From positions 19,484 through 83,483 of the forward strand of contig JAEHCM010000006.1 in NCBI GenBank assembly GCA_020696365.1: a stretch of 64,000 nucleotides of DNA. The letters are read 5' to 3'. Source of the stretch: Thermoplasmata archaeon (lineage in GTDB: Archaea; Thermoplasmatota; Thermoplasmata; UBA10834). Positions 6,991 through 59,952 of this stretch are shown one piece after another (position 1 is the first letter of the stretch; every line of letters starts with the position of its first letter). The notes beneath the pieces are model-generated. The model saw only the letters and a list, made by a program, of their open reading frames with translations. It was not told where the DNA came from and searched no databases. The translations under genes were made by a program, and so were the position numbers.

Positions 6991-8112
6991 ATGCGGCCAG
7001 ACGCGATACAGCTTCTATCGAGCACAGGCTCGTTCGGGCCAGTAATACTCGTGCCCATTATCCTCGCGGACCACTTCGAGGCTTCGAAGTGGATGATCGG
7101 GGTCGTTGTGGCGGCGTTTGCAGCCGCCTCCTTCCTCTCCAGCTACTTCTCTGGCCGGGCTGCGGACCTACATGGTCGGCGTACCATCCTCCTCATAGGG
7201 CTCTTCCTGAGCGGCGCCGTCACAGCCCTTCATGCGGTCACTCTGTGGAGCGATTCGTTTGTGCTGTTCGTGTCCGTGAGGGTGGCGCTCGGCCTTTGCG
7301 CAGGTATGTTCCCCGCGGCCTTGCTAGCGTATGCTTACGAGATGAAGACGAAGATGGGGAAATTTAGCTCCTGGGGTGCGGCCGGGTGGGGACTGGGCAG
7401 CCTATGCGTGGGGCTCTTCGGCACCTTGTACGAGTGGGCGTTCCTAACTTGCGCCGCCATCATCTTCGCCTCTTTCGCGATGGCCCTCATGCTCCCGTTC
7501 CCCAAGGAGAAGAGGCTCTATGTGCCGCTACTCCCCCTGAGGCTGATAAAGAGGAACGCGCCAGTCTTCACTTCGATGATGGTTAGGCATACTGGAGCGA
7601 ACATGATCTGGGTCACCTATCCGCTCTTCCTCATCTCGATCGGCGCCGATGAGCTCCTAATCGGGTTGGTCTACGCAGTGAATGCATTCAGCCAGTTCCT
7701 GATAATGAACATCATAGACAGGTTCGACCCCATCACCCTTGTTGCATTCGGGGTCGGGGCGTCATCGATCACATTCTTCCTGTTCGCGCTTGCAGGTTCG
7801 TACTGGGAGATTGTTCCGATGCAGGTACTACTGGCGAGTTCCTGGGCATGCCTGTATGTGGGAAGTCTCAGATATGTGATGGACAAGAACGAAGAGAAGG
7901 CGACCGTCACAGGGCTGCTGTCGAGCAGTATAAGCATGTCAGGCATACTGGGTCCCCTACTCGGTGGATTCGCCGCGGCCGCCCTCGGATTCAGAGGCGT
8001 GATGTTCATCGCCTCCGCAATGGCGCTTGCCGCCTTCGTGATCTTCATAATCGAGCTGAGATTGTCGGGAGAGCTTTATCATATTCGAGGGTTCTCAAGG
8101 GCACCAAGATGA
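6991..8112 (+). CDS. MFS transporter
   Basis: About 12 hydrophobic segments; motif A-like GRAADLHGRR. Confidence 0.85.
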   Translation: MRPDAIQLLSSTGSFGPVILVPIILADHFEASKWMIGVVVAAFAAASFLSSYFSGRAADLHGRRTILLIGLFLSGAVTALHAVTLWSDSFVLFVSVRVALGLCAGMFPAALLAYAYEMKTKMGKFSSWGAAGWGLGSLCVGLFGTLYEWAFLTCAAIIFASFAMALMLPFPKEKRLYVPLLPLRLIKRNAPVFTSMMVRHTGANMIWVTYPLFLISIGADELLIGLVYAVNAFSQFLIMNIIDRFDPITLVAFGVGASSITFFLFALAGSYWEIVPMQVLLASSWACLYVGSLRYVMDKNEEKATVTGLLSSSISMSGILGPLLGGFAAAALGFRGVMFIASAMALAAFVIFIIELRLSGELYHIRGFSRAPR

Positions 8113-53274: not shown

Positions 53275-54741
53275 ATGATAGGTTTTCCGAAGGGGAGGAT
53301 TTCGTTCCGCATGTTCGACGAGAGCGATTTGGACTCGCTCCACTGGGGAACATTGGATGTCCTAGAAAACGCAGGCATAAAGGTATTCAGCGAAGAGTGC
53401 CTGAAACTCCTTGAAGACGCAGGCTGCACGGTGAACCACAAAGATAGCAGCGCGAGGATACCCGGAAACCTCGTCGAGGAAGGGATAAGGAAAGCGAAGA
53501 AGAACATCACACTCTACGCTAGGAACCCGGACTACGATGTCGTCCTCGACGGAAGAAGGTCGTACTGCTGCACGGACGGGAACGGGACGAGCGTCATGGA
53601 CTTCGACACGGGAAAGAGGAGGATGTCGACCACGAAAGACCTGCAAACGGTCGGGAAGGTCGCGAATGCCCTCGATTCCGCGCACATATTCTGGCCGTGC
53701 GTGAGCTGCCAGGACGTACCAGACCACATCCGGCACGTGGTTGACCTCAAAGTGGCGCTCGGAGCCATAGAGAAGCACGTTCAGGTGGAGACGACCAGCC
53801 ACAGGAGGGAGGCTAAGTGGCTCGTCCAAATGGGTGCCGCTCTTGCAGGCGACGAGAAAGCCCTGAGCAGGAAGCCGATATTCTCTTCCATGCATTGCCC
53901 GTTCTCCCCGCTCCAACTCGACGGCGGATCGACGGAAGGTGCGCTCCTACTCGCCCGTGCCGGGGTCCCGATCTCATTCTATGGAATGCCCCAGGCAGGA
54001 ATAACTGGCCCGGTGACGCTCGCAGGCTCAATAATCGTGAACAACGCCGAGGTTCTCGCAGGCATGACGATGGCCCAGCTAGCAGCGCCTGGATCACCGT
54101 TCATATACGGGACGGGAGGAGCAGCCTTCGACATGAGAACGATGACTTGGGCCGGCGGCGGCCCCGAGAGAGCGCTCATATCCTCCGGCGCAGGGGCGCT
54201 AGCACACCACTACGGCTTCCCGATACTATGTGGCGGTATCGTAACCTCGGCGAAGGAGCCGGGACCACAGTCTTGCTACGAGAAGATGTCGAGCGGGCTG
54301 CCGCAGTTCTTCGCTGGCTGTGACATGATAGCCGGGCTCGGGCTCCTCGATGACGTCACGATGTTGTCGTACGAACAGATGGTCATTGATGACGAGATGG
54401 CGAGGATAATGGGCCGCCTCTCCGGAGGAGTGATCGTTGATGACGAGCACATGGCAGTCGACCTCATCAAGAAGGTCGGCGCAGGCGGCAGCTTCCTGAG
54501 TCACAGACACACCATGCATTGGCTACACAAGGAGCACTTCATACCAGACATAACAGACAGGCGTACGGGAGAGGCATGGGAGGTAGACGGCAATAAGAAC
54601 GTCGTAACCCGTGCAAGAGAGAAGGCTGCGAAGATAATGAAGGAACATCAGGTGCAACCGTTGACGACGGACGTGTCAGCGAGATTCGAAGAGATCGTGA
54701 AAGAGGCCGACGCGGACATAAAGACGAACGGCCTCAACTGA
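53275..54741 (+). CDS. Trimethylamine methyltransferase (MttB) superfamily protein, non-pyrrolysine
   Basis: GPVTLAGS, NAEVLAG, GLLDD...SYEQMVIDDE; no internal amber codon. Confidence 0.88.
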   Translation: MIGFPKGRISFRMFDESDLDSLHWGTLDVLENAGIKVFSEECLKLLEDAGCTVNHKDSSARIPGNLVEEGIRKAKKNITLYARNPDYDVVLDGRRSYCCTDGNGTSVMDFDTGKRRMSTTKDLQTVGKVANALDSAHIFWPCVSCQDVPDHIRHVVDLKVALGAIEKHVQVETTSHRREAKWLVQMGAALAGDEKALSRKPIFSSMHCPFSPLQLDGGSTEGALLLARAGVPISFYGMPQAGITGPVTLAGSIIVNNAEVLAGMTMAQLAAPGSPFIYGTGGAAFDMRTMTWAGGGPERALISSGAGALAHHYGFPILCGGIVTSAKEPGPQSCYEKMSSGLPQFFAGCDMIAGLGLLDDVTMLSYEQMVIDDEMARIMGRLSGGVIVDDEHMAVDLIKKVGAGGSFLSHRHTMHWLHKEHFIPDITDRRTGEAWEVDGNKNVVTRAREKAAKIMKEHQVQPLTTDVSARFEEIVKEADADIKTNGLN

Positions 54742-54840
54742 CATGCCGACTCGACGGCAGAAACCCACAAACCACATCAGAATCGGAGGACGGCGCCCGC
54801 AATCGATTCCAGCAAACCCTGACATGGAGGATAGTCCCGC

Positions 54841-55794
54841 TTGATCCCACTTGAGCTGGTACGAGAGTTCGAGAGACAGATGAAGGCGATGAGGATAGGG
54901 GACACACCCCTCAGACGCCTTCAGAAGATAGAGGGACTGCTCGGCACAAGGCGGCTCCACATCAAGCTCGAAGGTGAGAATCCGACAGGTACCCACAAGG
55001 ACCGGATGGCCCTGCTCCTAACACTCAGCGCAAGGAGGGAGGGGTATGACACCGTCGCGGCCGCCACCTGCGGCAACTACGGCGCCTCGCTCCTCCGCGT
55101 CTGCGACAAACTGGGGATGCAGTGCAGGATATACATACCCACGGAGTACGAAGGGACCAGAAACGCGGAGATCACAGATGCTGGCGGAAAGATCGTCACC
55201 ATTCAAGGCGATTACGAGAATGCGATTGCGACGTGCATCAGGGAATGTGCTGCGAACAGGTGGTACAATGCGAACCCGGGCGGGAAGAACAACGAGCTCG
55301 GAATCTACGCATACACATTCGTAGCGAAGGAGATGGCGCAGGCCCTCGGAAAACAGCCGGATTGGGTGTCCGTTCCGGTTGGGAACGGCACCATACTCGC
55401 TGGTGTCTGGCAGGGATTTCAATCCATGGGGATGAAACCACGCATGCTAGGGACATCGAACAACAACGCGGCCGTGAGAGGGATGGTGATGGGACGGGAG
55501 GTTCCCGTGACAGCGCCAGATATGACCCTGACACATGTGAACGACCCGCTTGCGGGGAACTATCTGCCTGACGCCGAGGACGCTATACGCGCAGTGATCG
55601 AATCGAAAGGACAGGGGATGGAGATATCCGACGAGGAGATGGTCGAAGCCGCGGAGATGTTGCTGGAAGAGGAAGGGCTAGACATACTCCCTGCCTCAGC
55701 TAGCGCTCTGGCCGGAATACGACATCTCGAGACGAAGACCCACACATTTGTGCTGGTTGCCACCGCCCGCGGAAATCCAGGCGGGGTTCGTTGA
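54841..55794 (+). CDS. Fold-type II PLP enzyme (threonine synthase-like)
   Basis: EGENPTGTHKDR, TCGNYG, VPVGNGT, PASASALAG; TTG start. Confidence 0.82.
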   Translation: MIPLELVREFERQMKAMRIGDTPLRRLQKIEGLLGTRRLHIKLEGENPTGTHKDRMALLLTLSARREGYDTVAAATCGNYGASLLRVCDKLGMQCRIYIPTEYEGTRNAEITDAGGKIVTIQGDYENAIATCIRECAANRWYNANPGGKNNELGIYAYTFVAKEMAQALGKQPDWVSVPVGNGTILAGVWQGFQSMGMKPRMLGTSNNNAAVRGMVMGREVPVTAPDMTLTHVNDPLAGNYLPDAEDAIRAVIESKGQGMEISDEEMVEAAEMLLEEEGLDILPASASALAGIRHLETKTHTFVLVATARGNPGGVR

Positions 55795-55861
55795 CCTGGC
55801 ATTGGAGTCAGTGTATCATTTTGGACGTTCGTGAGAGTACCGGCCCAAGCCAGCCAAGATA

Positions 55862-55870
55862 TTAATATAT
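55862..55870 (+). promoter_or_regulatory. Candidate TATA box of the ilv operon
   Basis: TTAATATAT with an upstream purine-containing BRE-like segment; 21 nt before the uORF ATG. Confidence 0.6.
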
Positions 55871-55890
55871 CTTCGTTTATGCCAGATTGT

Positions 55891-55977
55891 ATGCGCGAAA
55901 CCGCTGGTCGCAGAGCAGGTATTGTTCTTCCGTTGGCCCTAGTCGTTCTGCTCGACCTGCGAATCGTGCACCCCTGA
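55891..55977 (+). CDS. Putative Ile/Val/Leu-rich leader peptide MRETAGRRAGIVLPLALVVLLDLRIVHP
   Basis: Translated by hand; 12 of residues 11-26 are I/V/L; ends 54 nt before ilvB. Confidence 0.65.
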   Translation: MRETAGRRAGIVLPLALVVLLDLRIVHP

Positions 55978-56031
55978 CGGACTGCCTGTTTTCGCGGGTT
56001 TCCTGTCGGGTGAGATGAGGGAGGTGTAGAG

Positions 56032-57714
56032 ATGAATGGTTCGAGGGCCGTCGTGGAACTGCTTGAAGGACAGAAGGTCGAAGTCCTCTTCGGTATACCG
56101 GGAGGTGTGCTCCTGCCACTATACAACGAGCTGGTCGACACAGATATGAGGCACATACTCCCCAGGCACGAGCAGTGCGCTGCTCACATGGCTGACGGAT
56201 ACGCACGCGTGTCGAAGCGCCCGGGCGTGTGCATAGCCACATCTGGGCCGGGGGCGACGAACCTTGTCACCGGGGTAGCCACCGCATTCATGGACTCATC
56301 TCCGTTGATTGCATTGACGGGGCAGGTGGCGACCGGCGTCCTCGGGAATGACGCATTTCAGGAGGCCGATTCATTCAGTCTGATGATGCCTATCACGAAA
56401 CACAACTTCAGGGTAACAGACCCGGAGACCCTTCCAGAGGTGATGAAGAGGGCATTCCTGATCGCTACCACCGGCAGGTACGGTCCCGTACACGTCGACC
56501 TGCCTATCGACATACTCCAGGGGGAGATATCGGATGACGCAATGAGGAAGCCGGTCAGGGTGCCGAAGCCGAAGCGCAATCTCTCCGGCCTGCTGGATGC
56601 TATCAAGCTGCTCGAAGGAGCTGAGAGACCTACCATCCTCGTTGGGGGAGGAGTCTCGTGGTCGCGAGCGGGTCCTGAGATTGCACAGCTCGCCGATCTC
56701 CTCATGGCGCCCATCGTGACGACCCTGATGGCCAAGGGAGCCATCCCGGAGGACCATCCGCTCGTCCTTGGGGTTTGCGGAATGCATGGCCGGCAGGTCG
56801 CGAACTATGCCCTCAACAATTGCGATATCCTTCTGGCCATAGGAACCAGGTTCAGCGACAGGGTGACCGGAAATCTGAGTGAGTTCGGCAAGAACACGAA
56901 GGTCGTGCACGTCGACATCGACTCGTCTGAGATAGGCAAGAACGTCAAAGGCAGGGTCGGCCTCGTCGGAGATGCTTGGACCGTTGTGAATGCTCTGATT
57001 GCGGGCCTTCTGAAACGAAAGAAGAGATCGACCTGGAAGGATCGCATCATCGAGCTGAAGAAGGAATGCACCTGCGACTACAACCTAAGATCCGACCCGA
57101 TCAAGCCGCAGAAGGTCATACACGAGCTCTCAGACCTCCTGCCAGAAGATGCCATAGTCACGACGGAGGTGGGTCAGAACCAGATGTGGGCTGCGCACTT
57201 CTTCAGATGTCACGGCAAGCGGATGTTCTTCACGTCCGGTGGCCTCGGTACCATGGGGTTCGGGTTCCCGGCCGCACTCGGGGCCAAGGTTGCCCGGCCC
57301 GAGAGCGTCGTCGCGGACATCGCTGGTGACGGGAGCCTGCAGATGGTCTCCCAGGAATTCTCCACGGCGGTCGAGAACGACATCCCGGTGATGATATGTC
57401 TGTTGAACAACGGATGGCTCGGCATGGTCAAACAGTGGCAGAAGCATTTCTACGGATCGCGCTATCTGGCGACTAAACTCGGAAAATCACCGGACTTCGT
57501 GAAGCTTGCGGAAGCATACGGGGCGGAGGCTATAAGAATAGAGAAGCACTCCGAGGTTGCCGAAGCCATCAAAAGAGGCACAAGATCCGACGTGCCGATC
57601 CTGCTCGACTTCATAGTTGATCCTGAGGAGGATGTACTGCCTATGACGCCGCCCGGGAAGAGCTCGGCCGAGTGGATAAAAGGCAGGTGCCAATGGAAGG
57701 GAGGTGTCAGGTAA
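56032..57714 (+). CDS. ilvB: Acetolactate synthase large subunit
   Basis: FGIPGG, RHEQCAAHMADGYAR, TSGPGATN, GDGS...NNGWLGMV ThDP motif; SD GGAGGTG. Confidence 0.95.
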   Translation: MNGSRAVVELLEGQKVEVLFGIPGGVLLPLYNELVDTDMRHILPRHEQCAAHMADGYARVSKRPGVCIATSGPGATNLVTGVATAFMDSSPLIALTGQVATGVLGNDAFQEADSFSLMMPITKHNFRVTDPETLPEVMKRAFLIATTGRYGPVHVDLPIDILQGEISDDAMRKPVRVPKPKRNLSGLLDAIKLLEGAERPTILVGGGVSWSRAGPEIAQLADLLMAPIVTTLMAKGAIPEDHPLVLGVCGMHGRQVANYALNNCDILLAIGTRFSDRVTGNLSEFGKNTKVVHVDIDSSEIGKNVKGRVGLVGDAWTVVNALIAGLLKRKKRSTWKDRIIELKKECTCDYNLRSDPIKPQKVIHELSDLLPEDAIVTTEVGQNQMWAAHFFRCHGKRMFFTSGGLGTMGFGFPAALGAKVARPESVVADIAGDGSLQMVSQEFSTAVENDIPVMICLLNNGWLGMVKQWQKHFYGSRYLATKLGKSPDFVKLAEAYGAEAIRIEKHSEVAEAIKRGTRSDVPILLDFIVDPEEDVLPMTPPGKSSAEWIKGRCQWKGGVR

Positions 57715-58077
57715 ATGGAAGTCATCATGATGCTCACGTATGACCAACCAGGCGTGATGCAGCGAGTAATGGCCGAGTTCACGAGGAAGAAGATCAACGT
57801 GGACACCATCATCGTTGGACCTTGCGAGATGCCGGATAGGTCCCGGATAGTGATCTCGCTCAGGGGCCGCGAGATGGCCCTGGGCGTCATCGAACACCTC
57901 AGGGGGCTCCAGGAGGTCATCGAGGCCGACATGGTCGACCACAGACGTCATGAGGGCTACGCCGTCATGCTCAGCAAGGGCGGCGTGTGCCGCATCACGG
58001 GCACCGTGGAAGAGGTGGAAACCGTCATCAAGAAAAGTCAGCCAGACAAGTACATAGAAGTCGTCAATGCGATCTAG
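57715..58077 (+). CDS. ilvN: Acetolactate synthase regulatory (ACT) subunit
   Basis: DQPGVMQRV...INVDTI ACT motif; abuts the ilvB stop. Confidence 0.75.
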   Translation: MEVIMMLTYDQPGVMQRVMAEFTRKKINVDTIIVGPCEMPDRSRIVISLRGREMALGVIEHLRGLQEVIEADMVDHRRHEGYAVMLSKGGVCRITGTVEEVETVIKKSQPDKYIEVVNAI

Positions 58078-58098
58078 GATCCGCGCAAAGGTGATAGA

Positions 58099-59079
58099 AT
58101 GGCCAAAATATACTATGACAAGGACGCCAGCCTCGATGTTCTGAAAGGAAAGAGGGTGGCAGTGATCGGATACGGAATACAGGGAAGGGCACAGTCGCTC
58201 AATCTGAAGGACAGCGGTGTAGATGTCGTCGTTGCCCAGAAGTTCAAAGACGAATACTACGAGCGGGCCAAGACCGACGGAATGGAGATAATGGACATAC
58301 CTGAGGCGGTGAAGGGTTCGGACATCGTCATGATGCTCATCCCTGACGAGGTGCAGAAGGAAGTCTACGACAAGGAGGTTGCACCACATCTGCGAGAGGG
58401 CATGGTGCTGGACTTCGCCCACGGTTTCAACATACATTTCAAACGGATCGTCCCGCCCGAATTCATCGATGTGATCATGGTCGCCCCGAAGGGACCTGGT
58501 GCACTGGTCCGCGAGACTTTCGAGGCGGGCAGCGGCGTCCCTGCGCTCATCGCGGTACATCAGGACCACTCGAAGAAGGCCAAGGAGACCGCATTGGCCA
58601 TCGCGAAGGGCCTAGGCGCGACGACGAAGGGGGTTATCGAGACGTCCTTCGAGGAGGAGACGGAGACGGACTTGTTCGGCGAACAGGTCGTGCTGTGCGG
58701 CGGCGCGAGCGAATTGATCGGGTCAGCGTTCGACTTCCTCATCAGGAGCGGGTACCAGCCCGAGGTCGCCTACTTCGAGGTGCTTCACGAGCTCAAGCTC
58801 ATAATAGACCTCGTTCAGAAGGGCGGAATCGAGGGCATGTGGAAGAATGTGTCCAATACCGCCGAGTACGGGGGCCGGACCAGAGGCGCCAGGATCATAG
58901 ATCCTGCGACAGCGAGCGCGATGAAGAACGTCCTCGCGGACATCAAGTCGGGCGGGTTCGCCAAGGAGTGGGTGGACGAGTACGAGGCGGGCATGCCCAC
59001 ATTGACGAAGCTCAGGCAGGAAGGCGCCAAGTCACAGATAGAGGTCATCGGCACTGACATAAGGAAGATGTTCAAGTAA
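58099..59079 (+). CDS. ilvC: Ketol-acid reductoisomerase
   Basis: IGYGIQG, MVAPKGPG, ETETDLFGEQVVLCGG, SNTAEYG. Confidence 0.96.
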   Translation: MAKIYYDKDASLDVLKGKRVAVIGYGIQGRAQSLNLKDSGVDVVVAQKFKDEYYERAKTDGMEIMDIPEAVKGSDIVMMLIPDEVQKEVYDKEVAPHLREGMVLDFAHGFNIHFKRIVPPEFIDVIMVAPKGPGALVRETFEAGSGVPALIAVHQDHSKKAKETALAIAKGLGATTKGVIETSFEEETETDLFGEQVVLCGGASELIGSAFDFLIRSGYQPEVAYFEVLHELKLIIDLVQKGGIEGMWKNVSNTAEYGGRTRGARIIDPATASAMKNVLADIKSGGFAKEWVDEYEAGMPTLTKLRQEGAKSQIEVIGTDIRKMFK

Positions 59080-59145: not shown

Positions 59146-59952
59146 GTGAGAACGGATTTGAGCGATGACGTTGTACCTGGTGGGCTCTTCGGCAAGTTCG
59201 CGGCCGACGGCAGGACCTTCGTCGGCACGGTCCATGACGACAGTGTAGTCGAGTTGGACACGGACCGAATGTCTGACCTCTTCGACGGCTCGCCGGGACG
59301 CACCGTCAGGTCCCACAATGCTGGCGCAGTGAAAGTGCTGGCTCCGGTCGACCGACCATCCAAGATAATCTGCATCGGGCTGAACTACAGGAGCCACATA
59401 AGTGAGATGGGCTGGGAGGCACCCTCCTCTCCGATATTGTTCACCAAACCGCCCTCTGCCATTATAGGCCAGGGCGAGGACATAATTCTTCCATCAATGT
59501 CGAGAAGAGTCGATTACGAGGGCGAGTCCGCGACGATCATCGGCCGTCGCGCGAGCCATGTATCGGATGGGAGCCAGTTCATTTTCGGATACACCGCGTT
59601 CAACGATGTAACTGCCCGGGACCTGCAGAAAGCGGATCCAGACTGGACCAGAGCGAAGGGGTTCGACACGTTCGCTCCCATCGGGCCTCTGATCTCAACA
59701 ACTCCTCCGACGACCGTAACGACACGCCTGAACGGGAAGACTGTGCAGAGGTCGCCAACAAGCGACAGGGTTTTCGACGACTACACCCTTGTGGAATACA
59801 TCTCAACCATCATGACCCTCGAGCCGGGCGACATAATCGCTACCGGGACGCCATCTGGAATATCCCCGATGAGCGAAGGCGATGTCGTCGAGGTCGAGCT
59901 CGACGGAGTCGGGATATTGAGCAACTCCGTGAGAGAGTCCGGGGTTCGATGA
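59146..59952 (+). CDS. Fumarylacetoacetate hydrolase family protein
   Basis: KIICIGLNY, FTKP, DYEGE, NDVTARD, KGFDTF, TGTP; start uncertain. Confidence 0.88.
   Translation: MRTDLSDDVVPGGLFGKFAADGRTFVGTVHDDSVVELDTDRMSDLFDGSPGRTVRSHNAGAVKVLAPVDRPSKIICIGLNYRSHISEMGWEAPSSPILFTKPPSAIIGQGEDIILPSMSRRVDYEGESATIIGRRASHVSDGSQFIFGYTAFNDVTARDLQKADPDWTRAKGFDTFAPIGPLISTTPPTTVTTRLNGKTVQRSPTSDRVFDDYTLVEYISTIMTLEPGDIIATGTPSGISPMSEGDVVEVELDGVGILSNSVRESGVR

Follow-up and report, generated by a model that had tools for sequence, protein, structure and literature searches.

In an uncultured archaeon of the class Thermoplasmata, a 28-codon open reading frame (ORF) rich in isoleucine, valine, and leucine codons lies just upstream of ilvB-ilvN-ilvC, an operon for branched-chain amino acid (BCAA) synthesis. 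We analyze this element in a window of 64,000 nucleotides (nt), the stretch from 19,484 to 83,483 on the forward strand of contig JAEHCM010000006.1 (GenBank assembly GCA_020696365.1; 1.84 Mb, 67 contigs); unless another contig is named, coordinates count from the first letter of this stretch. An original prediction, made by a model from the DNA letters alone, had read the ORF as a possible leader peptide with attenuation-like control over the operon. The identity that it gave to the downstream genes is borne out by family matches: ilvB scores 731 bits against TIGR00118, the model for the biosynthetic acetolactate synthase large subunit (cut-off 538); ilvN carries the acetohydroxyacid synthase small-subunit ACT domain; and ilvC, encoding ketol-acid reductoisomerase, carries KARI_N and KARI_C.

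The leader ORF runs from an ATG at 55891 to a TGA at 55975-55977, leaving a gap of 54 nt before the ilvB ATG at 56032. Its start lies 29 nt from the first letter of a TATA box (TTAATATA), with 21 nt between box and ATG. Residues 11-26 comprise 2 Ile, 4 Val, and 6 Leu, written with five Leu codons (CTT, TTG, CTA, CTG, and CTC), three Val codons (GTT, GTC, and GTG), and two Ile codons (ATT and ATC); the rare codons of the tract are ATT (55921), GTT, CTT, TTG, and CTA (55939-55941). On re-reading the sequence, we found the ORF coordinates, spacings, peptide, and codon inventory of the original prediction to be correct throughout. The leader ORF is far from chance: 12 or more Ile/Leu/Val residues are reached by 1.7% of 27-residue windows in the long ORFs of the genome.

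To place the ORF in an evolutionary frame, we aligned the ilvB upstream regions of 40 genomes from four genera of one family (f1) and two genera of a second (f2); the two families make up the whole order, an uncultured lineage of the Thermoplasmata, as sampled. An equivalent ORF of 26-30 codons occupies the same place in every genome, so that the expectation attached to the prediction, a conserved position and continued Ile/Val/Leu enrichment despite sequence drift in related Thermoplasmata, held in 40 of 40. The comparison indicates that the ORF is conserved as a coding frame. All 40 genomes keep its frame open and have the +1 frame closed; the +2 frame is closed in 12. Indels within the ORF measure 3 or 6 nt, and those in the downstream spacer are of any length. 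One alignment column holds the stop codon of every genome (TGA in 23, TAA in 16, and TAG in one), and 53-65 nt separate it from ilvB. Entropy is highest at third codon positions (1.05 vs 0.85 at first and 0.81 at second positions).

The start of the ORF is tied to the promoter. The promoter block GCCAAGATATTAATAT is conserved throughout family f1, TTTATA stands at the equivalent place in family f2, and the alignment contains an A/T-rich element (cATTg) about 11-13 nt ahead of the leader ATG. Counted from the first letter of the TATA box, the ATG stands at 29-31 nt in 33 of the 40 genomes, at 32-33 nt in the three f2 genomes, and at 37 nt in four genomes of one genus (g2), whose leader ATG is shifted two codons inward. 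Across this genome, TATA-like hexamers upstream of genes concentrate at 28-33 nt, with hardly any at 21-27 nt; the spacing of the leader thus falls in the sole band of accumulation. Because the promoter block is conserved, the TATA-to-ATG distance is fixed, and that distance matches the genome-wide band, the leader ORF probably starts at, or within a few nt of, the 5' end of its transcript. The leaderless reading, which the prediction had offered cautiously, therefore fits. An in-frame ATG at 55879 would prepend four residues (MPDC, 55879-55890); it is confined to this genome and its three closest relatives and lies only 17 nt past the start of the TATA box, probably upstream of any plausible transcription start and hence outside the transcript.

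The composition of the leaders is as distinctive as their position. Among 37 distinct leaders, Ile, Leu, and Val supply 45% of residues, compared with 23% in the proteome, and Phe, Met, Trp, and Tyr together supply 4 of 996 residues (0.4%), compared with 10%. Hydrophobic content alone does not produce such a profile: among windows of the genome's own proteins that are equally rich in Ile, Leu, and Val, 14% are free of Phe, Met, Trp, and Tyr, and the mean is about two such residues (about 8%). This scarcity relative to the genome's own Ile/Leu/Val-rich windows suggests that the property under selection is Ile, Leu, and Val, not hydrophobicity; the alternative that the prediction had kept alongside its own, a merely hydrophobic or signal-like peptide, is accordingly disfavored. 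At positions 10-16, 19-21, 23, and 25-26, codon and residue drift freely, within the Ile/Leu/Val class.

Certain codons are nonetheless held, and these are rare ones. Codon 17 is CTA in 38 of 40 genomes, where CTA makes up 5% of the Leu codons of this genome; codon 13 is ATT in 20 genomes and ATC in none (ATT, 10% of Ile codons); and codon 20 is CTT in 23 (CTT, 12% of Leu codons). By this comparison, rare-codon enrichment is conserved in the leaders. The tRNA-Leu(UAG), sole reader of CTA, is encoded by one gene in the assembly. In addition, a UAG at 55940-55942, formed by positions 2 and 3 of codon 17 and position 1 of codon 18, is invariant in all 40 genomes though both residues vary; it shuts the +1 frame in all ilvB leaders.

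The leader RNA carries 2 predicted helices, which we call P1 and P2. In P1, CCGCnGG of codons 4-6 pairs with CCnGCGG of codons 22-24. The sole unpaired position of its 5' arm, the third base of codon 5, is the synonymous site that varies, and codon 4 encodes Ser, Thr, Pro, or Ala while its second and third nucleotides are always CC. A block in the region of the 3' arm (GTCGACCTGCGGA) is near-invariant in the 40 genomes. Over the helix, 79% of cells are paired; with the partner shifted along, the figure for the tested structure as a whole is 33-45%. An outward extension of P1 was rejected, its support being no better than that of shuffles.

P2 is a stable hairpin in thermodynamic predictions at 37 °C, with a folding energy of -20.1 kcal/mol in this genome and a mean of -23.5 kcal/mol over the 40 genomes (mean z -3.8; z below -2 in 39 of 40, or 97%). 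Its foot, the basal pairs, shows compensatory changes between genomes, and its apical helix differs in sequence between genera and folds in every genome. The hairpin contains the end of the ORF: codons 27 and 28 encode Arg, Gly, Ser, or His and Pro or Leu, respectively, through changes that keep G-C or G-U pairs. In relatives, P2 ends 7-9 nt before the ilvB Shine-Dalgarno, where GGAG-type motifs are conserved. A reading of the UGA bulge in P2 as a K-turn was rejected, as the 3' strand has no G·A partner. Since amino acids change at codons 4, 27, and 28 while the paired nucleotides stay, the constraint at these codons would be RNA structure rather than a peptide motif. Regulatory codons are combined with RNA helices, and any peptide motif goes no further than the helices dictate. 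Such a combination has the look of a regulatory leader peptide, and it argues against an arrest peptide and against a micro-protein.

A second leader stands before another gene of the pathway. Outside the window, on contig C1, a short ORF stops 35 nt ahead of a leuA-type gene; it is present in 32 of 32 genomes of the order, with 19-23 codons and all three stop codon types in use. This leuA leader ORF is preceded by a separate TATA box, about 75 nt of leader, and a GGAGG site. It retains a CTA two codons before the stop, and CTAG is kept near the stop. In three of four f1 genera, a U5-6 tract follows the leader ORF, right before the leuA ribosome-binding site. The 2 kinds of leader differ in composition: leuA leaders contain 41% Leu, 7.6% Ile, and 1.3% Val, and ilvB leaders contain 23% Leu, 6.8% Ile, and 16% Val (Fisher test, Val vs Leu, p = 7e-29, with relatedness ignored). 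By their codons, then, the leaders match the products of their pathways: Leu only before leuA, and Ile, Val, and Leu before the shared enzymes. The enterobacterial leaders follow the same logic, with leuL serving Leu only and ilvL and ivbL all three amino acids. No such leader was found before two other HMGL-family genes or before threonine synthase, and genome-wide scans for leaders with runs of Trp, His, Thr, Phe, or other amino acids returned noise only, leuA excepted. As a separate observation, the 5' untranslated region of leuA, between TATA box and small ORF (loci L136-L165), contains a hairpin whose arms both appear, by eye, to change between genera: GTCACGCC...GGCGTGAC, GGCCGTCCCT...GGGATTGGCC, and GTCATGCGCC...GGCGCGTGGC (alignment columns ~165-195). 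This hairpin may be a further structured element.

The ilvB leader is restricted to the order. A covariance model built from 24 leaders was run on 401 genomes of the class: 46 from the two families each yielded a single strong match, three further f1 genomes yielded none, and no convincing match came from other families. Weak matches turn up elsewhere (E 3.6e-4 to 9.3e-3 per genome); of fifteen retrieved, the three that we checked (L062, L063, and L067) lie inside long ORFs and were judged to be chance. A search with nhmmer found just one copy in the genome that contains the window. Among species-representative genomes, a pattern scan returned 40 matches: 30 in uncultured “Thermoplasmata archaeon” metagenome-assembled genomes (MAGs), and ten in unrelated bacteria, a chance-level number. 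The carriers, all uncultured, come from sediment, soil, and groundwater; examples are RBG_13_57_23, RBG_19FT_COMBO_56_21, and the closed MAG CP070748. The element is missing upstream of ilvB in two other Thermoplasmata families: one has no ORF there and one has an ORF that is not of the branched-chain kind. In another Thermoplasmata family, a 27-codon ORF (MNMEGACCHCETSAAESGPDPADSIIH; L028:3196-3276, minus strand) stands between a TATA box and ilvB; it encodes four Cys and is not enriched in branched-chain residues.

The features of the locus are collected in the table below. Upstream of the leader, a threonine synthase gene occupies 54841-55794, and right after it, at 55796-55821, stands a terminator-like hairpin with a T-run; this site fits the ilv leader as the start of a separate transcript. 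Two genes upstream of the leader, with threonine synthase between, is an MttB homologue of the trimethylamine methyltransferase family (53275-54741). On the same strand after ilvC come a fumarylacetoacetate-hydrolase-family gene (59146-59952), unusual for a BCAA cluster, and then ilvE. Minus-strand ORFs across the leader were rejected: they match no family and are disrupted by non-triplet indels in relatives.

Table. Coordinates of the ilvB leader, its operon, and the related leuA leader.
Feature	Position	Strand	Basis
Promoter: BRE-like GCCAAGA, then TATA box TTAATATA at 55862-55869	55853..55869	+	sequence, conservation
Leader ORF, 28 codons + TGA, peptide MRETAGRRAGIVLPLALVVLLDLRIVHP	55891..55977	+	sequence read, relatives
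Ile/Val/Leu codon tract, codons 11-26, proposed sensing codons	55921..55968	+	composition, codon conservation
P1 5' arm CCGCTGGTCG, codons 4-7	55901..55910	+	pairing, conservation
P1 3' arm CGACCTGCG, codons 21-24	55953..55961	+	pairing, conservation
P2, predicted stable hairpin; 5' arm holds last sense codon and stop codon of the leader	55973..56010	+	folding
ilvB Shine-Dalgarno GGGAGGTG, 8 nt past P2 end, 5 nt before ATG	56019..56026	+	sequence
Operon: ilvB 56032-57714, ilvN 57715-58077, ilvC 58099-59079	56032..59079	+	Pfam/NCBIfam
leuA leader ORF, 20 codons, MVNESRGLLLLLPLGLILLA (outside the window); leuA-type gene from 7737	contig C1, reverse-complement 7639-7701	-	

Taken as a whole, we consider it likely that the ORF is a cis-regulatory leader peptide, through which the translating ribosome would signal to ilvB-ilvN-ilvC how much charged Ile-, Val-, and Leu-tRNA is available. 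Judging from the spacing, the first transcribed nucleotide would be the A of the ATG or one adjacent to it, and the leader would form the first, leaderless cistron to be translated. When BCAA are plentiful, the ribosome would cross the 16-codon Ile/Val/Leu tract, terminate at the stop codon in the foot of P2, and depart; the leader would then fold into P1 and P2, and expression of the operon would be low. When BCAA are scarce, the ribosome would stall on the tract, including its conserved rare codons, and cover the P1 3' arm, together with the P2 5' arm if the stall falls at codons 23-26. The stalled ribosome would thus keep the leader unfolded and raise ilvBNC expression. The geometry itself is secure: P1 cannot form under a ribosome stalled at codons 10-21, one halted at codons 23-26 additionally sits on the P2 5' arm, and no ribosome can arrive at the stop codon unless it opens P2. 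As for the level of the output, our favored guess is that, with P2 open, the 30S subunit would more easily reach the start of ilvB, 8 nt further on; the output may equally lie in mRNA decay or in the pausing or termination of transcription. In this scheme, translation, stalling, whether expression rises or falls, and the stage at which the two helices take effect are all inferred.

Several results weigh against this interpretation. Archaeal intrinsic termination needs a U-tract, and most genomes have none after P2: the spacers are of the GAGAUGA or GAAUUGA type, with at most three U, and T-runs inside the P2 loop occur in some genera only. Nor did a bacterial promoter and terminator scan find a terminator-like site in the leader or before ilvB; its only such site was the one after threonine synthase. 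The intrinsic terminator of a classical transcription attenuator is therefore missing between leader ORF and ilvB. A classical 2:3 antiterminator, pairing the P1 3' arm with the P2 5' arm or the P1 5' arm with the P2 3' arm, yielded 4-6 bp in manual pairing and was set aside as unsupported; RNAalifold proposed no alternative structure, constrained folds gave no consistent switch, and RNAalifold on 26 leaders recovered only the foot of P2. P1 shows no covariation in the aligned leaders, because both arms are near-invariant and neither varies. We simulated stalling by placing a 30-nt ribosome footprint at codon 17, at codon 23, or at the stop codon: across 39 genomes, the unpaired probability of the ilvB Shine-Dalgarno is 0.44 when the leader is free and 0.48, 0.48, and 0.41 when it is stalled, respectively. 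The invariant UAG at 55940-55942 lacks an explanation in a leader-peptide model. Finally, since the genomes are related, counts of 40 of 40 overstate independence and perhaps stand for eight to ten independent lineages.

For the leuA leader, the corresponding values of Shine-Dalgarno accessibility are 0.55 free and 0.55, 0.46, and 0.51 stalled. Masking of the Shine-Dalgarno by pyrimidine-rich Leu and Ile codons was considered and rejected: it appears in minimum-free-energy folds of individual genomes and has no consistent effect over the 39. Two hallmarks of a classical attenuator, a short ORF and enrichment in the codons of the product, are both present by sequence comparison. We file the element under neither type of attenuator because it lacks the terminator of the one and the masking of the other; it appears to be of the leader-peptide kind, but neither a classical transcription attenuator nor a Shine-Dalgarno-masking attenuator. 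The original proposal of a ribosome-sensed BCAA leader thus gains support from comparison, while for its attenuation step no terminator, antiterminator, or masking of the ribosome-binding site was found.

Other explanations can be set against the same observations. The element could be a structured cis-regulatory RNA, a riboswitch-like sensor or the site of a regulatory protein, in which P1 and P2 are functional and the frame is incidental or secondary. Nucleotide conservation is strong, including at synonymous positions and the invariant UAG, P2 is stable in all genomes, and changes at codons 4, 27, and 28 respect pairing, all as such an RNA would have it. Yet a non-coding RNA would not be expected to keep a frame open in all 40 genomes and its start at a set distance from the TATA box, or to show three stop codons in one column, triplet-only indels within the ORF, and an Ile/Leu/Val class kept through non-synonymous change. 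Moreover, an Rfam scan of 54500-57500 gave chance-level matches only (E of at least 2.7, far under gathering scores), and the leuA leader differs in sequence yet follows the same codon logic. We regard this explanation as unlikely.

It is quite unlikely, in our judgment, that the ORF is a device for ribosome loading or reinitiation, a leaderless cistron that brings ribosomes and unfolds P2 for ilvB and that senses no amino acid. The leaderless position, the stop codon inside P2, and the fixed 7-9 nt between P2 and the Shine-Dalgarno fit this idea, as does a reported proposal for bacteria that leader genes boost downstream translation (PMC4833913). Left unexplained, however, are the presence of Ile, Leu, and Val before ilvB and of Leu without Val before leuA, the exclusion of Phe, Met, Trp, and Tyr, and the conservation of rare codons.

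Very unlikely is a TnaC-like arrest peptide: in the exit tunnel, its nascent chain (...DLRILRP-stop) would detect a metabolite and prevent termination at Pro-stop. The C-terminal half does look conserved (V-L-V-D-L-R-I-x-x-P), and the last residue, immediately before the stop, is Pro in 29 of 40 genomes. However, the last two residues vary among unlike types (R/G/S/H and P/L), as C-G to U-G changes in P2 allow; the codons for DLR are the 3' arm of P1, so that the RNA accounts for the apparent motif; and the leuA leader ends otherwise, in ...LILA-stop. Hence no conservation of C-terminal residues independent of RNA structure was found. Least likely of all is a small hydrophobic protein with its own function, such as a membrane micro-protein or acetolactate synthase partner, that is co-transcribed and non-regulatory. 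Conservation of the ORF and a hydrophobic core of about 12-16 residues speak for it. Against it, a conserved Asp and a conserved Arg break up this core, which is too short to be a typical membrane helix and in which Phe, Met, Trp, and Tyr are avoided; in addition, the N-terminal half drifts freely, the peptide matches no Pfam or NCBIfam family, and the ORF is never found away from ilvB.

The proposed cis-regulatory leader peptide can be compared with known bacterial systems. The leader peptides of the enterobacterial ilvBN and ilvGMEDA operons (ivbL and ilvL) exert classical ribosome-mediated transcription attenuation. They share with the archaeal element a short ORF of Ile, Val, and Leu codons between promoter and acetolactate synthase operon, and hairpins that overlap and follow the ORF. 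In contrast, the element described here would be read by an archaeal RNA polymerase from a TATA/BRE promoter, its ORF is apparently leaderless, its hairpin has no U-tract and contains the stop codon, and no antiterminator was found. The leu leader of Escherichia coli and Salmonella (leuL) has rare CUA codons. The archaeal leuA leader likewise combines a run of Leu codons with a rare CTA, and the ilvB leader keeps CTA too; the archaeal case differs in its host, in a U5-6 tract that precedes leuA in some genera only, and in that no antiterminator could be defined.

The corynebacterial ilvBNC attenuator contains an intrinsic terminator. For Corynebacterium glutamicum, the literature reports an ilvBNC attenuator with a leader peptide (PMC11857589, PMC10272879; Morbach et al. 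2000 via PMC13158618), described as a three-hairpin attenuator (PMC11857589). The 2 systems share the gene order ilvB-ilvN-ilvC, leader codons rich in Ile, Val, and Leu, and translation of the leader without a ribosome-binding site, as is apparently the case here. They differ in that the archaeal leader has two conserved helices, no terminator, and no sequence similarity to its counterpart. The general scheme of ribosome-mediated attenuation is summarized in bioRxiv 10.1101/834739, which also describes mycobacterial polycysteine leaderless short ORFs that act on translation, without a transcription terminator. Like these, the archaeal ORF would be the leaderless first cistron of an operon, rich in codons for the product of the pathway. 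In mycobacteria, the Cys codons pair with the Shine-Dalgarno of the next gene (10.1101/834739). In the archaeal leaders, by contrast, neither the ilvB nor the leuA Shine-Dalgarno was consistently masked when folding was simulated.

Textbooks present leader-peptide attenuation as a mechanism of bacteria, one that depends on ribosomes closely trailing RNA polymerase, and the known control of archaeal amino-acid operons is by DNA-binding regulators. Searching full-text literature, we found no description of leader-peptide control in archaea; papers covering both topics treat attenuation as bacterial. We lean, by a little, toward the broader proposition that archaea use ribosome-mediated, product-matched leaders for amino-acid biosynthesis (ilvBNC and leuA), with a read-out by a stop-codon hairpin that abuts the next ribosome-binding site instead of a hairpin-plus-U terminator. 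The small leader ORFs are unannotated, having been missed in the genome annotation of these MAGs. If the proposition is true, archaea would read tRNA charging via the ribosome, on a leaderless mRNA and with an RNA polymerase that does not use bacterial-type terminators. The leaders would then provide a testable handle on functional transcription-translation coupling and on upstream-ORF regulation in archaea, and they would represent an archaeal way to couple the translation of a leaderless mini-cistron to the expression of an operon.

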